Positions 28,278 through 58,940 of a DNA stretch of 64,000 bases are shown here, piece by piece. The notes under the pieces are model-generated. The model saw only the letters and a program-made list of their open reading frames with translations, was not told where the DNA came from and ran no database searches. The position numbers were made by a program, and so were the translations under genes. How positions within the stretch are numbered: the first letter of the stretch is position 1; each line of letters begins with the position of its first letter. The stretch comes from an uncultured Planctomycetales bacterium (GTDB lineage: Bacteria; Omnitrophota; Gorgyraeia; Zapsychrales; JANLHA01). The stretch spans positions 120,099 through 184,098 of the forward strand of contig CAZAXH010000002.1 of the NCBI GenBank assembly GCA_964489065.1. The letters run 5' to 3'.

Positions 28278-30788
28278 ATGGGGATGATTGATACACTTAT
28301 TGCCTTTGCCCTTAGAAAGCCCAAGATCATTTTTGCCGTAACCGTTTTGGCGGTCGTGGCGTCTTTGGCGGCGTTCTTCCGGGTTAAGGTGGACACAGAC
28401 CCGGAGAATATGCTCCCGGAGAATGAGTTTGTCCGTGTTTTTAACCACGAGGTAAAAAAAGAATTCACGATCTATGATTATGTCGTCCTGGGGGTCGTCA
28501 ATGAGAAGGATCCGGACGGGGTTTTTAACCCGGCTACTTTAGAGAAGATCTACCGGATTACGGAGGAGATCAAGACTATTGACGGGGTTATCGCCTATGA
28601 GCTGATGAGCCTGGCTAATAAGGATGATATCGAACAGGCCGGCCCGGGGACCCTCAGTTTCCGCTGGCTGATGGGGCCGCCTCCCTACACGGCGGCGGAG
28701 TCTCAACGCATTAAAACGCGCGCCTTGGAAAATCCGATGTTTTACGACACGCTCATTTCGCGCGACGGCAAGGCCCTGTGTATTTATGTCCCTATTCAAG
28801 AGAAGAACATGAGTTACCGCGTCGCCAAGGCCATCCAGAAAATTATTCAAGGGTATCCCGGAGTGGAGCAATATCACCTGACGGGACTACCGCTGGCGGA
28901 GGACGCGTTCGGCGTTGAAATGTTCTGGCAGATGGGGATCTCCGCGCCGCTGGCGGTTTTGGTTATTTTCCTGCTGATGTGGTGGTTTTTCAAACATGTC
29001 ATTCTGGTCCTGATGCCGCTTGTGATGGCCGTTGTCGTGGTCCTGATCACCATGGGGCTTTTGGTCGGTCTGGGTTTCCCGATCCATATTATGAGTTCGA
29101 TGATCCCTATTTTCCTTTTGCCGATTTCCGTGCTGGATTCCATTCACATTTTGAATGAATTCTTTGAGAAGTACCGCACCTTTAAAGACAAGAAAAAAAC
29201 GATTTCCTATGTGCTGCATGAGCTCTACCGCCCGAATCTCTTCACCTCGTTAACGACGGTAGCCGGTTTTTTTTCCCTGTCTTTTGCCCCTATCCCGCCG
29301 GTCCAGGTCTTCGGGATTGCGGTGGCTTTTGGAGTCGCTCTGGCCTGGGTTTTGACTGTTTTGTTGATACCGGCTTATATCGCTCTTCTTGATGAGAGCA
29401 AACTCGGGGATTTTGGCGTGCATGAGGATGATCTTAAGCAAGGCGCATTGAGCCGCGCCCTCGCCGCCTGGGGGAGATTTACAGTCAAACACTGGAAAGA
29501 GGTTTTATCCGGATCGGTGGCCGTTGTGGCCCTGTCCCTTTACGGGATAATGCATATTGAAATCAACGATAATCCGACCAAATGGTTTAATAAGAAGCAT
29601 CCTATCCGGGTCGCGGATAAAGTGCTTAACGACCATTTCGGCGGTGTTTACAGCGTGTACCTGGTCATGGAAGCCAAAGATAAAGAGGCCCAGGTTTTCC
29701 AGGAGCCGGCGATGTTGCGTTATATCGAAGGGCTGCAGCAGTCCCTGCAGGAGAAAGGGACGGTCGGGAAATCAACTTCGCTGGCGGATGTCACGAAAAA
29801 AGTCTATTATGAACTTCTGGGGGGCGATAAAAAGAACAATATAATCCCTCCGACAGCCCCGGCCGTGGCGCAGACGCTTATTTCATTCGAGAATTCGCAT
29901 AAACCCGATGACCTCTGGCATTTTGTCGTCCCCGACTATTCCAAGGCCAACGTGTGGCTTCAGCTGACGTCCGGCGACAATAAACAAATGGCGGCCGTGG
30001 TGAAGCAGGTGGGCGAATACGTCCAGGCGCATCCGGTCCCGTTTGAGGTGACGTACCACTGGGCCGGGCTGACGTATATCAATATGGTCTGGCAGGACAA
30101 AATGGTGGTGGGGATGCTGGTGAATTTCCTGGGAAGTTTTTTAATCGTCCTTTTTATGATGATTGTGCTTTTCAAGTCTCCGGTCACGGGGCTGGTGTCG
30201 ATGCTCCCTCTGACGATCACCATTCTTTTCATTTACAGTTTGCTCGGCTTCACGGGAAAGGAGTATGACATGCCGGTGGCCGTGCTGTCGGCGTTGACGT
30301 TGGGGTTGGCCGTTGATTTTGCCATTCATTTTATTGAGCGCGCCCGCGCCTTTTACGCGGAGAATAAAAACTGGCCCAAAACGGTTGAAGGCATGTTTGG
30401 CGCCCCGGCTAGGGCGTTGATTAAAAACGCGCTGGTGATCTCGATCGGCTTTTTGCCTCTTTTTGCTTCGCCGCTGGTTCCTTATAATACGGTAGGGTTT
30501 TTTATGTTTATGATCATGCTGGTTGCCAGCATCGTTACGCTGATGACCTTGCCGGCGCTTATAACCGGTTTCCCATGGCTTGTGTTTGAAGAAAAGAAGA
30601 CAAAGGCCATCTGTTCGTGCCGGAATTGTGTTTTGATGTCGGGCATTATCGCGGCTACAATAGCATACGTCCTGTTGGGCTACGATCTGGCCCGGCTCAA
30701 TGTCACGACGATTATTTGCGTGACTGTCGTCGTGGTTTTGTCCGGCGTGTGTTCCTTTGTGTCGCGGCAGAAGATGTGCCCAAAATGA
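28278..30788 (+). CDS. MMPL/RND-superfamily exporter (HpnN-like)
   Basis: 836 aa with two 6-TM bundles, each preceded by a large periplasmic loop. RND/MMPL-type TM motifs. Confidence 0.8.
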   Translation: MGMIDTLIAFALRKPKIIFAVTVLAVVASLAAFFRVKVDTDPENMLPENEFVRVFNHEVKKEFTIYDYVVLGVVNEKDPDGVFNPATLEKIYRITEEIKTIDGVIAYELMSLANKDDIEQAGPGTLSFRWLMGPPPYTAAESQRIKTRALENPMFYDTLISRDGKALCIYVPIQEKNMSYRVAKAIQKIIQGYPGVEQYHLTGLPLAEDAFGVEMFWQMGISAPLAVLVIFLLMWWFFKHVILVLMPLVMAVVVVLITMGLLVGLGFPIHIMSSMIPIFLLPISVLDSIHILNEFFEKYRTFKDKKKTISYVLHELYRPNLFTSLTTVAGFFSLSFAPIPPVQVFGIAVAFGVALAWVLTVLLIPAYIALLDESKLGDFGVHEDDLKQGALSRALAAWGRFTVKHWKEVLSGSVAVVALSLYGIMHIEINDNPTKWFNKKHPIRVADKVLNDHFGGVYSVYLVMEAKDKEAQVFQEPAMLRYIEGLQQSLQEKGTVGKSTSLADVTKKVYYELLGGDKKNNIIPPTAPAVAQTLISFENSHKPDDLWHFVVPDYSKANVWLQLTSGDNKQMAAVVKQVGEYVQAHPVPFEVTYHWAGLTYINMVWQDKMVVGMLVNFLGSFLIVLFMMIVLFKSPVTGLVSMLPLTITILFIYSLLGFTGKEYDMPVAVLSALTLGLAVDFAIHFIERARAFYAENKNWPKTVEGMFGAPARALIKNALVISIGFLPLFASPLVPYNTVGFFMFMIMLVASIVTLMTLPALITGFPWLVFEEKKTKAICSCRNCVLMSGIIAATIAYVLLGYDLARLNVTTIICVTVVVVLSGVCSFVSRQKMCPK

Positions 30789-49003: not shown

Positions 49004-49391
49004 GGGGGTGATTGGTCTCGACTTAAGTTGAGAGACCATAGGTGGCATGCCGAGGACGCCAGGTTGGCCTCGTTAATCATCCGGGCACAAAACAAATGGC
49101 ACTTACAGTGTTGTTGCCGAGGCCGAGGCTATTTTAGCCGAAGCCCAACCAGCCCTTGTTTAATTAAAAAACAAGGCCCTCTTATGAGCCAGGCCTGTGG
49201 GCTTATAAGAGGACATTCAGCAGGCTAGCCGCGGCCAGCGCCTTCGGGGCGGCGGCGAAACTTAAGGAGGATGGCCTGACACAGCCCTGTTTGCCGGGTG
49301 GTTGCAGGTGACACTTAAAGACAAACTACGCATGTAGAGGCTTATGGGAAGCAACTGAAGGACCGGGGTTCGATTCCCCGCACCTCCACCA
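49004..49391 (+). ncRNA. ssrA: tmRNA (ssrA, transfer-messenger RNA)
   Basis: 5' GGGGGUGAUUGG...GGUGGCAUGCCGAGG...GGCCUCG aligns with the E. coli tmRNA 5' region. 3' ...GGACCGGGGUUCGAUUCCCCGCACCUCCACCA forms the T-arm and acceptor with encoded CCA. Internal stop-containing hairpin CCCTTGTTT-AATTAA-AAACAAGGG. Sits directly 3' of smpB. Confidence 0.85.
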
Positions 49392-49399
49392 AAATTTTA

Positions 49400-49450
49400 A
49401 GGACTCGTTACTTATTGAGCTTCAATACGTGGCGAGTCCTTTGCTGTTTT
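49400..49450 (+). terminator. rho-independent terminator of ssrA
   Basis: 8-bp stem AGGACTCG/CGAGTCCT with a long loop, followed by TTTGCTGTTTT. Confidence 0.6.
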
Positions 49451-49703
49451 CAGGTGTGGCGGGGCCCGATCAGTGTCCATTTTTTATGACTTAATGCAGG
49501 AACTGAACAAAAAATCCTTGATATACGACGTTCCGGATAAGTGATATTACATGGCAAATGGATACCATTTTATAAAAAACAGGGCTATAATAATGAAAAA
49601 TCGGGGTAAAAATTGAATTATTCAAGAGGTAAAAAACAACGCCAACCAGCAAATGGATAAGTCGTATAATAATTGTTATGTGTAAAAATAAAAAAGGGGA
49701 AAT

Positions 49704-50228
49704 ATGGAAATAGCTATTGTTATCCTATTCATTGTAGGGGGGACAGCTTGTCCTTTATGGTTTTACCTTTTTAAGCATCTTTTTAATTTAAGACACAAAC
49801 TCAGCACTAATATTCGCGAAGAAGTTTATCCGGATATACATAAAACAGTGAATTTGTTGATTTCTCTATCTTCTGCCGCAATTGTATTGACATTTTCGAT
49901 CCTGCAATTTTTAAACCAGCATCCGATAAAATGTAAATATTTTATAATTACATCATGGCTTAGCTTTACATTAGTAGTTATATTTGGAATGGTAATATTA
50001 ACATTTTTATATATTTTTCGTGCACAGTATAAAGTTATGCTCCAGTGCATTAAGAAGGCGAAAGATGACCCTACTAGTGAAACTGCGGAAGATGCCATAA
50101 CAAGTATTAATAGTGTAATGGACAAGGATATTTCCCTTCATGTATTACTCTATATGCAATCTATATCTTTTGTCAGTGGAATTATTTTTTTGATGATTTT
50201 TGCAATTATAAACATAGGAAGCACATAA
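49704..50228 (+). CDS. small 4-TM membrane protein, unknown function (AT-rich islet)
   Basis: 174 aa with four predicted TM helices, a strongly AT-rich codon composition unlike the backbone, and RBS AGGGGA upstream. Confidence 0.5.
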   Translation: MEIAIVILFIVGGTACPLWFYLFKHLFNLRHKLSTNIREEVYPDIHKTVNLLISLSSAAIVLTFSILQFLNQHPIKCKYFIITSWLSFTLVVIFGMVILTFLYIFRAQYKVMLQCIKKAKDDPTSETAEDAITSINSVMDKDISLHVLLYMQSISFVSGIIFLMIFAIINIGST

Positions 50229-50333
50229 CAACCTACTGCAGCGGATGCCGCTCGGCACCTTCGGCAGCCTCGCGACACCGCTGAGTACGGTGCGTTAGCC
50301 GCTAGTCTGCAAATAGAAAGCAAAGGAAAATAT

Positions 50334-51560
50334 ATGCACCCATTCAGAGAAGGAGATACATTTGCTACTTTTAGAAATATGGTTGACACCATAGTTTCTG
50401 AAATCAATTCTCTTGAAAATAATTATGTATTGAAAGCCTCCCAATCTGAATTGGAAGAGCATTTTGTGGGCAAGGTTCTTATTGACCCGTTAGTTCTTTA
50501 TCCAGAGAAAAGATATATCAAAAATCAATCGGGAACTAAAATTGATGTAAGTCGAGACTTCAGAAGGGGACTTTTTCCTGATGAGAGAGCAATAGTACAA
50601 GGAACAAAAGTTGACATTGCCATTCCATTTGAGGGCGACCCAATGCTATGGAGAATCAGGGCTTCTACTTTTAGTTTAAGCGGTTATCCTGAAATTGAAG
50701 TTCGGAACAATGAAATTGTTTTTAGCGTAAGTTTCCCTGACGACTCTGCACAATCAAGCCAACTTCTAGCCGAGATTGACCGCAACACAAAATCACTTTC
50801 AGATGCAGTGGGCTACCTAAAAAGTGATGTCACCAATCACAACAACTCTGCACCAAATACCATCAAGCAGGCTTTGACGAGAAAACGGACGCTTGCTCAG
50901 TCAACAACTGGCGCTATTGCCGCTTTAGGTATTCCTGTAAAACGAGTTGGCGAAGAACCAACTTTTACTATTCCCACAAAAAGAAGAACCAGACCTGCCA
51001 CGCTACCTACTGTTGCAACGGGGAAATATGAACCTGAACCTGTTCTGGATGAGAAGGAATATCAACATATTTTGGAGATATTAAGAAGCATGTCTCTAGT
51101 AATAGAGCGAAACCCATCGTCTTTTGCATCTCTTGATGAAGAAGCAATAAGAGACCATTTTTTGTTACAACTCAATGGTCATTATGAAGGCGGAGCGACA
51201 GGCGAAACTTTCAACGCATCTGGCAAAACTGACATCCTAATCAGAGAAGGCAATAAAAATGTTTTCATAGCCGAATGTAAATTTTGGCGCGGGCAAAAGG
51301 TTTTTACGGAAGCGGTTAACCAATTACTTGGTTATCTTACTTGGAGAGATTCAAAGTGCGCTTTGCTTATTTTCAATAAAACTAAAGACTCAAGTGCTGT
51401 CCGACAAAAAATGCACGAAACTATGGAAGCATTGCCAGAATACAGGAAAACAGAATTTCATCAACCAAATGGAGATTCTCGTTACATTTTGGTCAAAGCG
51501 TCAGAGCCTGGAAAAGAAATTGTCGTTACAACTCAACTCTACGATATACCAGTTGTATAA
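50334..51560 (+). CDS. uncharacterised protein with C-terminal PD-(D/E)xK nuclease-like motif (AT-rich islet)
   Basis: 408 aa. C-terminal GKTDILIREGNKNVFIAECKFWRG gives a D-x14-E-C-K restriction-endonuclease-fold signature. The N-terminal ~290 aa have no recognisable motif. Composition is AT-rich and foreign. Confidence 0.5.
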   Translation: MHPFREGDTFATFRNMVDTIVSEINSLENNYVLKASQSELEEHFVGKVLIDPLVLYPEKRYIKNQSGTKIDVSRDFRRGLFPDERAIVQGTKVDIAIPFEGDPMLWRIRASTFSLSGYPEIEVRNNEIVFSVSFPDDSAQSSQLLAEIDRNTKSLSDAVGYLKSDVTNHNNSAPNTIKQALTRKRTLAQSTTGAIAALGIPVKRVGEEPTFTIPTKRRTRPATLPTVATGKYEPEPVLDEKEYQHILEILRSMSLVIERNPSSFASLDEEAIRDHFLLQLNGHYEGGATGETFNASGKTDILIREGNKNVFIAECKFWRGQKVFTEAVNQLLGYLTWRDSKCALLIFNKTKDSSAVRQKMHETMEALPEYRKTEFHQPNGDSRYILVKASEPGKEIVVTTQLYDIPVV

Positions 51561-51727
51561 TGGCAAAAAAGCGGCTAACAACCAAATGCACTTGACCGCC
51601 TTCGGCGCGGGTACGCGAGCTTCTATGAGCAAGCCATCTCTTGAATTTTTGAAAGAGACCGTGCTAGAATCGGCGGCAAGTGATTTGGAGCGTTGGGCGC
51701 ACTTAATAAGAGGAAGACGATAATTGC

Positions 51728-51811
51728 ATGAAAAAAAGGATTCTTGCCTCGATTAAAGCAACGATAGATAATGGGCGTCGCTTAATTGAAGATGCGGATA
51801 TGTGTGCATGA
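51728..51811 (+). pseudogene. 27-codon ORF (MKKRILASIKATIDNGRRLIEDADMCA), possibly the N-terminal remnant of a truncated gene
   Basis: Lies at an abrupt AT-rich to GC-rich composition junction. The helix-like N-terminus terminates after 27 codons. Confidence 0.25.
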
Positions 51812-51842
51812 GGCGTCTTTGCGTTGTTTTGGAGGTATTGGC

Positions 51843-53039
51843 ATGGGAAGAATCTGGACGTCAGAAACGGTCTGTCCGCTGACAGCGCATGTGGTCGGCG
51901 TCTTCCTTGTTTTCGTCATCTTGAGTTGCGTGCCTGTGAGCCAGGACGCGAGAGCAGAAGTACCCCAGCCCCAATTCAATGTCGGCTATCAGGTTCTTGA
52001 TCTCAAGTACCGGAAGGACGGGCAAGAGCAAGCCTTGACCGTGGCCGTCTGGTATCCGACTGCGGTGCAGCCAGAATCGTATAACTACGGGGGGCCCACA
52101 AGCGGCAATGTTGCCGTCGACGCCGCGCCCTGTGCCGACGGTGGTCCTTATCCTTTTTTGGCCTTTTCGCACGGGTACGGGGGTAGTGGACTCGGCGCAT
52201 TGTTCTTCACCGAAGCCCTCGCCGCTCGGGGTTGGATCGTGGCCTGCCCGGACCATCAAGACAAACATTCGGCCGTCCGCATACGGACCGGCCAAGAGCA
52301 GGGCTTCGACCGCCTTGGTTTGCTGCGGCACGCCAAAGAGATAGCCGCTTCCGGCCCCGGGAACCGGAGCAACTACCTGTACCGACTCGATGAGTTGAGA
52401 CTCGTGTTGGACGGCATGTTGACTTCCGATCCTTTTGGGAAACTCATTGACAGAGATCGCATCGCTGTCGGTGGGCACTCTTTTGGAGGATTCACTGCCT
52501 TGGGTCTTTGCGGGACCATCAAGGAACGCCATGATCCCCGCATTAAGGCCGTATTGTTATTTTCGACGGGGGCCGGTGGTTATCTGTTCACGGAGGACGA
52601 GCTTGCCGCCGTGCGGATTCCATCGATGCTGTTCATGGGAGAGCGGGAAGAAGACCAACGTCGCGGCTTCGAAACGATGTCGGGGCTTTCGGCCAAGATA
52701 TACCGAAACGTATCGTCGCCGAAGTACTTCCTTGAGGTTAAGGGCGCCAGCCATTTTTCGTTCAACAATCGCTTCGCGGACAACCGCAGGACAAAGCTGT
52801 TGAGCGGCACGGAGGAACAGTTCGAGGTTATCCGGCGGTACGCGATTGCTTTCTTGGAGAAGCACGTCGCAGGAAAGAGAGGCGATGGTCAGGTGCTGGA
52901 GCGGAGTAATCCACGGCTCACACGCTATGTCAGGGAACCAAACCCGGTCGCATCCAAACAAGACGTGGATGCGCCGGAGGAGAGGATGCGACGCGCCGGC
53001 CCACGCCCTCCAGCGGACGCGGATAAGCCGCGCCGCTGA
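51843..53039 (+). CDS. secreted alpha/beta hydrolase, PAF-acetylhydrolase/lipase-like
   Basis: Signal peptide, nucleophile elbow GHSFGG as in PAF-AH-like and chlorophyllase-like esterases, and a His near the C-terminus. GC-rich relative to its flanks. Start chosen at MGRIW; the track starts at 51786. Confidence 0.7.
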   Translation: MGRIWTSETVCPLTAHVVGVFLVFVILSCVPVSQDARAEVPQPQFNVGYQVLDLKYRKDGQEQALTVAVWYPTAVQPESYNYGGPTSGNVAVDAAPCADGGPYPFLAFSHGYGGSGLGALFFTEALAARGWIVACPDHQDKHSAVRIRTGQEQGFDRLGLLRHAKEIAASGPGNRSNYLYRLDELRLVLDGMLTSDPFGKLIDRDRIAVGGHSFGGFTALGLCGTIKERHDPRIKAVLLFSTGAGGYLFTEDELAAVRIPSMLFMGEREEDQRRGFETMSGLSAKIYRNVSSPKYFLEVKGASHFSFNNRFADNRRTKLLSGTEEQFEVIRRYAIAFLEKHVAGKRGDGQVLERSNPRLTRYVREPNPVASKQDVDAPEERMRRAGPRPPADADKPRR

Positions 53040-53070
53040 ACCCAAGCGTTATACTACAAGGAGGTTCGGA

Positions 53071-53385
53071 ATGACGTTCCCTTACAAAATAAACTTCGAT
53101 CAAATTGATTGGGATTCGCCAATGGCCGGATTAAGGCATAAATATATTGATCACGGCGGTCAGCGCATCCGGCTTGTGGAGTACTCACGGGACTTGCCCC
53201 CGCATTGGTGCGAAAAGGGGCATTGCGGTTATTTGATCAGCGGAAAAATGGAAATCGAATATCCTGACCGGACGATAATATATAATCAGGGCGATGGCAT
53301 ATTTATTCCAGATGGCCCGGCGCATAAGCACAAGGGCCGGGTGCTGTCAGAGCAGGCTTTGGTATTTTTCATCGAGAAAGCGTAA
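53071..53385 (+). CDS. small cupin-fold protein
   Basis: ~104 aa with a two-motif cupin-like His/Glu pattern (HWCEKGHCGYLISGKMEIEY...GDGIFIPDGPAHKH). Confidence 0.5.
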   Translation: MTFPYKINFDQIDWDSPMAGLRHKYIDHGGQRIRLVEYSRDLPPHWCEKGHCGYLISGKMEIEYPDRTIIYNQGDGIFIPDGPAHKHKGRVLSEQALVFFIEKA

Positions 53386-53534
53386 CCTTCGGCTGTAGCG
53401 GGCCGTGATAGAATAAAAAGGAGAAAGCGTGAAGGGGCCGGTCCCCAAAAGGGGACAGGTCATCCGCACCTAACGGTGCTACATCAGGCCCCAGTGATTT
53501 CAGCAGTTAGAGGAATAATTTCAAAGGTGTATAG

Positions 53535-54032
53535 ATGAACACAGAAAATATTATTTTTCATCCGATTGGCATAATCCGTTCTCCACACCAGAAACTTTCG
53601 GATATTCCAATACAGCCAGTTTTTTCTGACGACATTAAAGGCTCGGTCGTGGTTGATCCTGAATTTGCCGAAGGCTTAATGGACCTGTGTGAGTTTTCCC
53701 ATATCTACCTGTTTTATTATTTCCACCAGTGTCAGGAAACATGTCTGCATGTAAAGCCGTATCTTTCAGACCAAGAGCATGGTGTTTTCGCGACACGCGC
53801 CCCGCATCGGCCCAATAAGCTGGGGATGAGTTTAGTCCGGTTGACAGAAGTGGAAGGGAATATCCTTCATATAAAAGACATAGATATACTGGATGGGACA
53901 CCCTTGATTGATATAAAGCCGTATATACAACGGTTTGATTCAAGAGAAAAGGTCCGGTCAGGATGGCAGGATCTTGTGTCTGACAACACCGCGGCCATCC
54001 GGGGATTAAGGAATTATAAGAAACAAAAATAG
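53535..54032 (+). CDS. TsaA/TrmO-like SAM-dependent tRNA methyltransferase (YaeB/UPF0066 family)
   Basis: Family-typical N-terminus IGIIRSPHQ, ...VDPEFAEGL...SHIYLFYYFH and a C-terminal GTPLIDIKPY motif. Confidence 0.75.
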   Translation: MNTENIIFHPIGIIRSPHQKLSDIPIQPVFSDDIKGSVVVDPEFAEGLMDLCEFSHIYLFYYFHQCQETCLHVKPYLSDQEHGVFATRAPHRPNKLGMSLVRLTEVEGNILHIKDIDILDGTPLIDIKPYIQRFDSREKVRSGWQDLVSDNTAAIRGLRNYKKQK

Positions 54033-58517: not shown

Positions 58518-58940
58518 ATGGAAGTATCTAAAAAAGGTCTCCCGGGAGAGGGATGGGTGATCGCGAGCCATTTAAGCGTTCCCGCTTCGTTTTTTCTGCC
58601 AATCCCGTTTGCTTTCTTCCCCTTATTTATATGGGCGATCAAGAAAAAAGCCCCTTTTGTCCGGGAACAGGTAAAGCAAACGTTTAATTTCCAGATGACA
58701 CTTATCCTGTATCTCCTTGTATTTTTCGGCGTAGCTTTTTTGATCTGTTATTATTCCCGGGACCCTAACCTGTTCGCCGTAGGGTGGATTTTCCCTATGA
58801 TATTTTATTTTGTGGAGTTCTTGTTCTCCGGCATTGCCGTTCTTATGAAGATCGCAAATTTAGAGACCTTCGATTATCCCTGGACCATCGAGTTTATAAA
58901 AGAGAAAAACTGGCGGTTGTTGAAGGCGGATGGATTGTAG
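58518..58940 (+). CDS. DUF4870-like small membrane protein
   Basis: 140 aa with 3-4 TM helices and a conserved N-terminal region (ASHLS.P.S.F...P...IW...KK.PFV). Confidence 0.5.
   Translation: MEVSKKGLPGEGWVIASHLSVPASFFLPIPFAFFPLFIWAIKKKAPFVREQVKQTFNFQMTLILYLLVFFGVAFLICYYSRDPNLFAVGWIFPMIFYFVEFLFSGIAVLMKIANLETFDYPWTIEFIKEKNWRLLKADGL

Follow-up and report, generated by a model that had tools for sequence, protein, structure and literature searches.

On contig CAZAXH010000002.1 of an uncultured bacterium, the 64-kb stretch of DNA analysed here (the window) carries a segment of foreign DNA with genes for a four-transmembrane (4-TM) protein, a 408-amino-acid (408-aa) nuclease-like protein of the PADLOC family PDC-S54, a hydrolase and a cupin. 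The segment, from 49676 to about 53411 in the intergenic space downstream of the transfer-messenger RNA (tmRNA) gene ssrA, is very probably a short array of integron cassettes without a nearby integrase (CALIN). The array would comprise four cassettes, for the orphan 4-TM protein, PDC-S54, the hydrolase and the cupin, with an attC site after each open reading frame (ORF), the fourth of them decayed. Its features are listed below; a slash within a junction sequence marks the crossover point, R1 and R2 are the two covariance models used to find attC sites, and L094 is a close relative of the window.

49631–49679, + strand: conserved left border of the array, with an R''-like CGCCAAC; ends in G/TTAT, crossover inferred between 49675 and 49676
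49676–50293, + strand: cassette 1, orphan 174-aa 4-TM protein, ORF 49704–50228 (ORF call, hydropathy, third-position G+C content (GC3) of 0.28)
50219–50304, + strand: attC1; R'' ACATAAC at 50223–50229, L box CTACTGCAGCGG / CCGCTGAGTA with one bulged base, R' GTTAGCC at 50294–50300
50294–51689, + strand: cassette 2, PDC-S54 gene, ORF 50334–51560 (408 aa) behind a 40-nt leader (PADLOC PDLC05036, nucleotide homology)
51569–51702, + strand: attC2; R'' GGCTAAC at 51573–51579, L box GCACTTG-A-CCGCC / GGCGGCAAGTG with a bulged A, R' GTTGGGC at 51690–51696
51690–53054, + strand: cassette 3 (probable), secreted alpha/beta-hydrolase-like gene 51843–53039 (attC3, absent from L094)
52994–53058, + strand: attC3; R' GTTATAC at 53048–53054 (R2 22.9 bits, E = 0.002; R1 15 bits, E = 0.18)
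53048–53428, + strand: cassette 4 (probable), cupin gene 53071–53385, stop in GCG-TAA-C (synteny and junction alignment with L094)

The core sites of attC follow the consensus GTTRRRY (R') and RYYYAAC (R''), and it is typical for cassettes that the stop codon of the gene lies inside the R'' of its own attC. At attC1 and attC2 the R'' and R' cores pair and enclose an imperfect L-box stem with an extrahelical base, and the stop codon TAA of the 4-TM ORF sits within the R'' core of attC1 (ACA-TAA-C). Model R1 was based on 9 attC sites that flank homologues of the 408-aa protein in other organisms, with the window sequence excluded, and was used to scan the whole window with filters off; in its seed alignment pairing holds for 77% of the cells and drops to 24-46% once the partners are shifted against each other, and compensatory changes occur at 10 pairs. 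Model R2 was based on 19 attC sites, again excluding the window sequence. The best match in the window with both models was attC2 (R1, 36.5 bits, E = 1e-6; R2, 38.3 bits, E = 3.3e-7), whose sequence forms a long imperfect hairpin, R'' pairing with the downstream GTTGGGC (z = -4.4). The hairpin of attC1 also folds, and this site scored 32.1 bits (E = 1.1e-5) with R2 and 16.4 bits (E = 0.084, the third-best match in the window) with R1. The top three matches of R2 on the + strand of the window were attC2, attC1 and attC3, spaced by 1.35-1.4 kb, and its next-best match reached 16 bits. A weak attC-like match at 29942–30032 (16.2 bits, E ~0.09), distant from the array, is probably due to chance.

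The preliminary description of this DNA had proposed a comparison with related genomes, and such a comparison revealed different cargo between the same junctions. Using SmpB as a probe, we found three activated-sludge contigs with 97% identical SmpB. One of these, L094 (about 92% identical in nucleotide sequence), tracks the window through ssrA up to 49679 and rejoins it at 53429. The two align up to ...AATTGTTAT and diverge from 49680, and in place of window positions 49680–53428 L094 has one different cassette, consisting of a 148-aa ORF and an attC site (29.1 bits, E = 2e-5). Both junctions are common to the two contigs, the left at G/TTAT (crossover between 49675 and 49676) and the right after R'; since the left-junction sequence is shared and the divergence follows it, a crossover at G/TT fits. 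A contig from a sibling strain, L084, is 99.8% identical from 51689 rightward and diverges exactly at 51689, to the left of which lies another attC (31.7 bits) that shares its terminal R' with attC2. Independent copies of the PDC-S54 gene in L087, L088 and L001/L002 (82–96% nucleotide identity) match the window only over 50293/4–51581. The edges of this homology are GTTAGCC and GGCTAAC: the breakpoint at 50293/4 coincides with the R' of attC1, and the other end lies 2 nt past the R'' of attC2. As is characteristic of mobile units, homology stops at the cassette borders and the content differs among strains at a fixed site. Beyond R'', the rest of the attC is locus-specific in the copies of the PDC-S54 cassette (window 51571–51581 compared with L087 and L088). 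The attC1 of the window and the attC of L094 both carry ACATAACAAC...CAGCGGA(T/C)GCC, a hint of attC types particular to the lineage or of homogenisation.

L094 lacks both the hydrolase and the cupin gene, and attC3 follows the former, which is why we read the two as cassettes 3 and 4. The hydrolase gene has faint Pfam matches to PETase and PAF-AH, an N-terminal hydrophobic segment and a GC3 of 0.67, and the representative of its cluster comes from a Candidatus Omnitrophota metagenome-assembled genome. With a GC3 of 0.55 for the cupin gene, cassettes 3 and 4 are near the native composition, unlike cassettes 1 and 2. Cassette 4 ends in a decayed attC, GTGATAGA, where L094 has GTTAGAT. The leader of cassette 3 contains a 27-codon ORF (MKKRILASIKATIDNGRRLIEDADMCA) at 51729–51812, past attC2 and before the hydrolase gene begins.

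The proposal that the DNA is foreign is supported. In 300-nt windows the G+C content falls from 0.50-0.54 to 0.31-0.45 over about 49400–51800, with flanks at 0.50-0.68, and GC3 is 0.28 in the 4-TM ORF and 0.31 in the 408-aa ORF as compared with 0.67-0.68 in the smpB, lpdA-like and hydrolase genes. These measurements agree with the AT-rich DNA noticed after the tmRNA gene, with three corrections. The drop had been placed right after the ssrA terminator and its onset is about 90 nt past ssrA, beyond the hairpin and T-run; a G+C content of one-third holds for the 4-TM ORF (0.31) and not for the 408-aa ORF (0.40); and the islet had been drawn at 49392–51811, while the segment that is foreign relative to L094 spans 49680–53428 and so extends past that right edge. 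The remark that no integrase is present stands for the 64-kb window, where a probe that picked up recombinases in the loci of homologues detected no IntI/Xer-like gene. It is for this reason that we call the array a CALIN, which in the definition of IntegronFinder has two or more attC sites of one orientation within 4 kb and lacks a nearby integron integrase. Loot et al. (bioRxiv 10.1101/2022.09.11.507474) reported that 1,362 of 2,961 CALINs hold two cassettes and that IntI inserts cassettes at genomic 5'-GWT-3' sites. An origin of the present array by IntI insertion at a genomic GWT site is plausible; alternatively, it may have arisen by decay of an integron. The left border at 49631–49679 could be either an attI-like site or a decayed attC.

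The 408-aa protein matches the PADLOC profile of PDC-S54 (PDLC05036) with 444 bits (E = 1.6e-133; residues 3–406 against profile positions 7–407 of 410), and has no match in Pfam at E<=1 and none in NCBIfam. The PDCs are 145 candidates obtained by "guilt by embedding", from genes inside BREX, DISARM or type I restriction-modification (RM) loci (Payne et al., bioRxiv 10.1101/2024.01.29.577857). The suggestion of a previously undescribed system is therefore not supported, the protein being a full-length member of a catalogued candidate. We obtained 3,543 matches to the family in a database clustered at 90%, and 4,484 clusters at 50% identity, nearly all of 405–420 aa with a full-length match. 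Members occur in 460 of about 185,000 species genomes, on 22 plasmids (haloarchaeal, Spiroplasma and Streptomyces plasmids among them) as well as in 2 records of phages, and every copy on a plasmid or phage is unannotated or labelled "hypothetical protein"; copies are also found in conjugative and integrative elements (ICE). One homologue is split by a frameshift into 161 and 250 aa (L087, 1129–2354), with a gene for a HicB-like antitoxin about 750 nt upstream.

PDC-S54 travels as an integron cassette, also in other phyla. Within subfamily 1, core sites are present at the upstream gene border in 10 of 39 cases and at the downstream border in 10 of 38, against a background of 2%. The homologue is located in arrays of 3–6 attC sites in four loci (L021, L015, L032, L078), and a remnant of intI lies directly upstream of the cassette in L016 (TIGR02249, E = 2.6e-12 versus about 1e-4 for Xer models). 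Recombinases near the homologues in L032 and L037 were rejected as IntI, being generic or IS91-associated, as was a fragment in L013 that is XerC-like.

Amino-acid identity is 70–91% across Planctomycetota, Nitrosomonas, Desulfobacterota, Acidobacteriota and Marinobacter. A second subfamily consists of 414-aa proteins that are 37% identical overall, with residues 253–348 almost unchanged. The ratio of nonsynonymous to synonymous substitution rates (Ka/Ks) was about 0.05 and synonymous sites were saturated at 70–78% amino-acid identity, indicating that the conservation reflects strong purifying selection and not recent transfer alone. Nonsynonymous change in the N-terminal domain was 1.3–3.6 times that in the C-terminal domain. 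To describe the domains, we used an AlphaFold2 model based on an alignment with both subfamilies (mean predicted local distance difference test (pLDDT) score of 77); in an earlier model, for which all sequences were >70% identical, residues 199–315 were left unmodelled, and the 37%-identical subfamily resolved the nuclease domain. The parts of the protein are as follows.

50334–50924, + strand: N-terminal domain, aa 1–197; modelled as three helices, a four-stranded sheet and a 57-residue helix (141–197), pLDDT mostly 85–95
50925–51041, + strand: linker, aa 198–236; predicted disordered, pLDDT <50, with motifs LGIPxKR, PTFxIPxKRR and YxPEP
51042–51560, + strand: PD-(D/E)xK nuclease domain, aa 237–408; D300 at 51231–51233, E314 at 51273–51275, K316 at 51279–51281, Q330/Y334 on the next helix

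A C-terminal PD-(D/E)xK nuclease behind an N-terminal region without recognisable motif had been proposed, and both parts of the proposal were upheld. D300, E314 and K316 (D300...E314-C-K316) are invariant in 68 homologues from the two subfamilies, and are placed on strands 301–305 and 308–317 of a modelled alpha-beta-beta-beta-alpha-beta core. This core, with the acidic residue on beta2 and (D/E)xK on beta3, is that of the PD-(D/E)xK superfamily, and the modelled core matches restriction endonucleases. The protein is quite likely an active nuclease; its nuclease domain is of the BamHI/Mrr fold class and sits behind a swappable N-terminal domain. Sequence searches of solved structures with the single protein and with a profile of 68 sequences yielded spurious matches only, and Foldseek gave no match at E<=0.001 against PDB and BFVD. 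The N-terminal domain is a putative sensor and oligomerisation part; its weak nucleotidyltransferase-like and chaperone-like matches had poor root mean square deviations or covered short stretches, and were not used. In some relatives, this domain is swapped for unrelated N-termini on the same nuclease, and the swapped-in regions belong to no Pfam family. The linker has the invariant residues L198, G199, I200, P201, P209, P225, E235 and P236, and its motifs are kept in the two subfamilies alike; it may serve in regulation, DNA binding or docking.

Two other explanations of the locus were weighed against the cassette array, both of which go back to the preliminary description. One is that the islet is the decayed remnant of an island integrated into the 3' end of ssrA by a tyrosine integrase, in which case the attC-like hairpins would be incidental. 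The islet adjoins ssrA, and insertions with a repeat at the ssrA 3' end in L094 and L096 indicate that this site is used in the lineage. These insertions of 1.4-1.5 kb (L094 6869–8356, L096 4164–5570) are located exactly at the end of ssrA, corresponding to window position 49391, are followed by a repeat of its last 18–26 nt, and encode a 68-aa AlpA/excisionase-like protein and a 228-aa PEP-CTERM protein and no integrase; they represent a decayed tmRNA-targeting islet that is absent from the window. In the window, however, no att-type direct repeat of the ssrA 3' end was found at the far border of the array, there is no integrase, and the ssrA hairpin and about 290 nt of sequence conserved in L094 precede the start of the foreign DNA at 49680. 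Moreover, L094 has its ssrA insertion and its cassette slot as distinct sites with 300 nt between them, and the borders of the foreign DNA are G/TT crossover sites with attC structure. We consider an island remnant very improbable, and the adjacency of the array to the tmRNA gene is incidental.

In the other explanation, the nuclease and the 4-TM protein would act together in abortive infection as a module of two genes, the latter serving as membrane effector or anchor. Both ORFs were recovered as described (174 aa, 49704–50228; 408 aa, 50334–51560), and the smaller one has four hydrophobic segments (residues 1–24, 48–71, 77–109 and 143–174) and an open frame longer than expected by chance, its length being reached by 1 of 5000 shuffles. 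The two are adjacent, co-oriented and AT-rich, and there is a precedent for combining a membrane part with a nuclease in Epona, a validated cassette system in which an Mrr-type nuclease is fused to a 2-TM holin-like domain (Darracq et al.). Against such a module, a search of 5.8 billion proteins returned the 174-aa protein itself as the sole match, and the protein belongs to no Pfam, NCBIfam, PADLOC or PHROG family; an ORF of the same length upstream of the L001 homologue proved unrelated on comparison. Nor does the nuclease have a conserved neighbour: when all ORFs within 5 kb were clustered, the largest cluster covered 4 of 84 loci, and the downstream ORF pairs in L089 and L090, which look alike, are mutually unrelated. 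The DNA common to other copies of the nuclease gene leaves out the 4-TM ORF, the attC between the two ORFs (E = 1e-5) makes them separately mobile units, and PADLOC treats PDC-S54 as a single-gene system. The module has only a slim chance of being real. With high confidence PDC-S54 is a single-gene unit, and the 4-TM protein is an unrelated orphan cassette and not a partner of the nuclease.

The proposed defence role fared better than the module and the novelty that had been attached to it, and is plausible given the PDC-S54 membership and the defence genes nearby. A PADLOC scan of the surroundings of homologues detected RmrA, SIR2, PbeA, RM methyltransferases, GajB, HamA, AbiEii and DRT; in L001 (14620–17743) a Gabija-like pair of AAA_15/AAA_21 and UvrD-helicase genes lies 3 kb from the homologue, and the copy on the Thauera plasmid pTX1 adjoins a type I RM S subunit, a RelE/HigA pair and a restriction endonuclease. 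Anti-phage systems are known to be stored in integron cassettes, among them many single proteins in which an unknown domain is combined with an Mrr-like nuclease (Kieffer et al. 2025; Darracq et al. 2025). On balance, we favour a role of PDC-S54 against phages or other mobile genetic elements. The protein would act alone, its constant nuclease being joined through the long helix and the conserved basic linker to a faster-evolving N-terminal domain. This domain and the linker may keep the nuclease inactive until a feature of an invading nucleic acid is met, with modified DNA, DNA ends or a replication intermediate as candidate triggers, upon which the oligomerised nuclease would cut DNA. The outcome would be a methyltransferase-independent, "plug-and-play" protection that tolerates transfer between phyla.

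Such direct restriction gated by a DNA feature is put forward tentatively. It ranks above abortive infection set off by a phage protein, given the high conservation of the putative sensor itself across phyla. Under abortive infection, what the N-terminal domain senses would be a phage protein or a disturbed host, and the DNA of host and phage alike would then be degraded by the nuclease, in the manner of NucC, Cap4 or HamA and lacking a separate signal generator; this is unlikely, as an N-terminal domain that is 70–90% identical across phyla is more in keeping with recognition of a conserved nucleic-acid feature than with an arms race against phage proteins, and there is no partner that makes a second messenger. 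About equally doubtful is that PDC-S54 is a nuclease with no immune role, either a selfish, addictive toxin-like stabiliser of arrays or a transferred enzyme of DNA repair or recombination. The literature holds no direct defence test of PDC-S54, selfish genes, toxin-antitoxin genes among them, abound in integron arrays (Darracq et al.), copies are carried by conjugative and integrative elements, and the unusually invariant nuclease core could mean a conserved cellular partner. On the other hand, no antitoxin or immunity neighbour is conserved, the family was identified from genes located inside BREX, DISARM or type I RM loci, defence genes recur near its copies, and the sporadic spread over species genomes is unlike that of a housekeeping repair enzyme. 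A bolder proposal, somewhat short of an even chance, is that PDC-S54 represents a new autonomous class of immune proteins, in which a novel N-terminal sensor gates a near-invariant BamHI/Mrr-fold nuclease. It would have spread largely as a cassette through bacterial phyla, and also on archaeal plasmids and phages, and would be held at 70–90% identity by purifying selection as it must work unaided in any host. The same proposal would have the ssrA-adjacent site as an active site of cassette acquisition served by an integrase encoded elsewhere.

The protein in the window is the same as PDC-S54 in PADLOC in its full-length profile match and single-gene organisation, with no difference at the sequence level. 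The array resembles described integron cassettes and CALINs (Kieffer 2025, Darracq 2025, Getz 2025, Cury 2016, Loot) in its compact single ORFs, attC sites with a bulged L box, co-orientation, strain-variable content, small size and lack of an integrase within reach. It differs from them in its host, which is an uncultured environmental bacterium, probably of the Omnitrophota, rather than a Vibrio or a clinical plasmid, and in its left border, a conserved non-hairpin site beside ssrA; further, the PDC-S54 ORF keeps the R'' core across hosts with the remaining attC specific to the locus. From BamHI, BglII, BstYI, OkrAI and the Mrr fold classes PDC-S54 differs by a sequence identity of 9-12% and an extra N-terminal region of 236 residues. 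Pfam Mrr_cat (PF04471) gave no match to the 408-aa protein and matched 1 of 68 members at E = 0.022, which does not place the family in Mrr_cat. Shedu (SduA, DUF4263), which is frequent in integron cassettes (Darracq et al.), shares with it the one-protein design, in which a regulatory N-terminal domain varies and the C-terminal PD-(D/E)xK nuclease is conserved, and by analogy PDC-S54 may work similarly. The earlier comparison with Shedu and Card1 does not extend to membership, there being no match to DUF4263 or to the PADLOC Shedu models at E<=1. Epona and Divona, validated cassettes of the Vibrio cholerae superintegron, are likewise cassette-borne single proteins with a domain joined to an Mrr/RecB-like nuclease (Darracq et al.); Epona has its 2-TM holin-like domain and Divona has DUF4365 and crr6, and PDC-S54 matches none of these Pfam families. 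It has neither the conserved neighbour nor the SAVED/CARF match of the CBASS and CRISPR nucleases NucC, Cap4 and Can2, and the likeness is one of nuclease fold only.

Taken as a whole, the locus is best explained by a CALIN of four cassettes with a stand-alone PDC-S54 nuclease under N-terminal gating, to which we assign a probability of about 0.72. Several observations weigh against this explanation. The R'' of attC3 lacks AAC, the fourth attC has no covariance-model match, which makes the fourth cassette a weak call, and the left border shows no hairpin, no fold better than those of shuffled sequences and no covariance-model match. The attC models rest on sites chosen by hand beside homologues, so that their E-values are rough, and the search for an integrase covered 64 kb of a contig of 361 kb. 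Subfamily 2 is rarely attC-linked, with core sites at 0 of 38 and 1 of 40 gene borders. In the protein, structure searches with the AlphaFold2 model gave no convincing structural neighbour for the N-terminal domain, the sensor role of which is inferred, and the model has low confidence in the linker and at residues 292–297. The link to defence is one of association: in the comparison of neighbouring with distant regions PADLOC found defence genes in both sets, and it had no genome-wide background or per-gene counts. A literature search found the name PDC-S54 in no paper's main text and no experiment on it.

The flanks of the array contain the following features upstream.

49004–49391, + strand: ssrA (tmRNA), intact, left neighbour outside the array (ARAGORN; Rfam RF00023, 177.7 bits, full length)
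49399–49450, + strand: probable ssrA terminator, hairpin AAGGACTCG...CGAGTCCTT followed by a T-run (read from the sequence)

The loop of the terminator hairpin exceeds 8 nt, for which reason it was not listed by the terminator scan; the hairpin is kept in L094. The tmRNA was the sole match in an Rfam scan of the array region, promoter and terminator scans gave site counts that were not above those of shuffled sequence, and an exact-match metagenome search with the ssrA terminator sequence had no matches. Two independent public assemblies end a contig at 49582 and another contig begins at 49636, inside the conserved left flank, which may reflect strain polymorphism. To the right, a TrmO_N gene at 53535–54032 (window 53527–54008) is missing in L094, with AAGG microhomology at the breakpoints and no attC; it is a second indel just beyond the array. 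A gene of the MamF_MmsF family (magnetosome membrane protein) is located at about 58518–58940 (L003 8883–9305). This gene and the Omnitrophota source of the hydrolase's cluster representative suggest that the host may belong to that phylum and is possibly magnetotactic.

What is new here, apart from the cassette travel of PDC-S54, is modest but useful: a four-cassette CALIN with turnover at the strain level, and the fold assignment, two subfamilies and domain limits of PDC-S54. A "hypothetical protein" becomes a concrete candidate, with one gene of 1.2 kb, a clear catalytic triad and natural variants in which the N-terminal domain is swapped. The candidates that PADLOC derived by embedding are now linked to the cassette metagenome, and the idea of integrons as biobanks of defence is widened from Vibrio and clinical plasmids to uncultured environmental phyla. 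The locus itself is a natural example of cassette turnover among near-identical strains at a site with no integrase, and bears on whether small CALINs are what is left of decayed integrons or come from cassettes inserted into genomic sites. For the family, travel as a cassette explains its high conservation together with its patchy spread across phyla.

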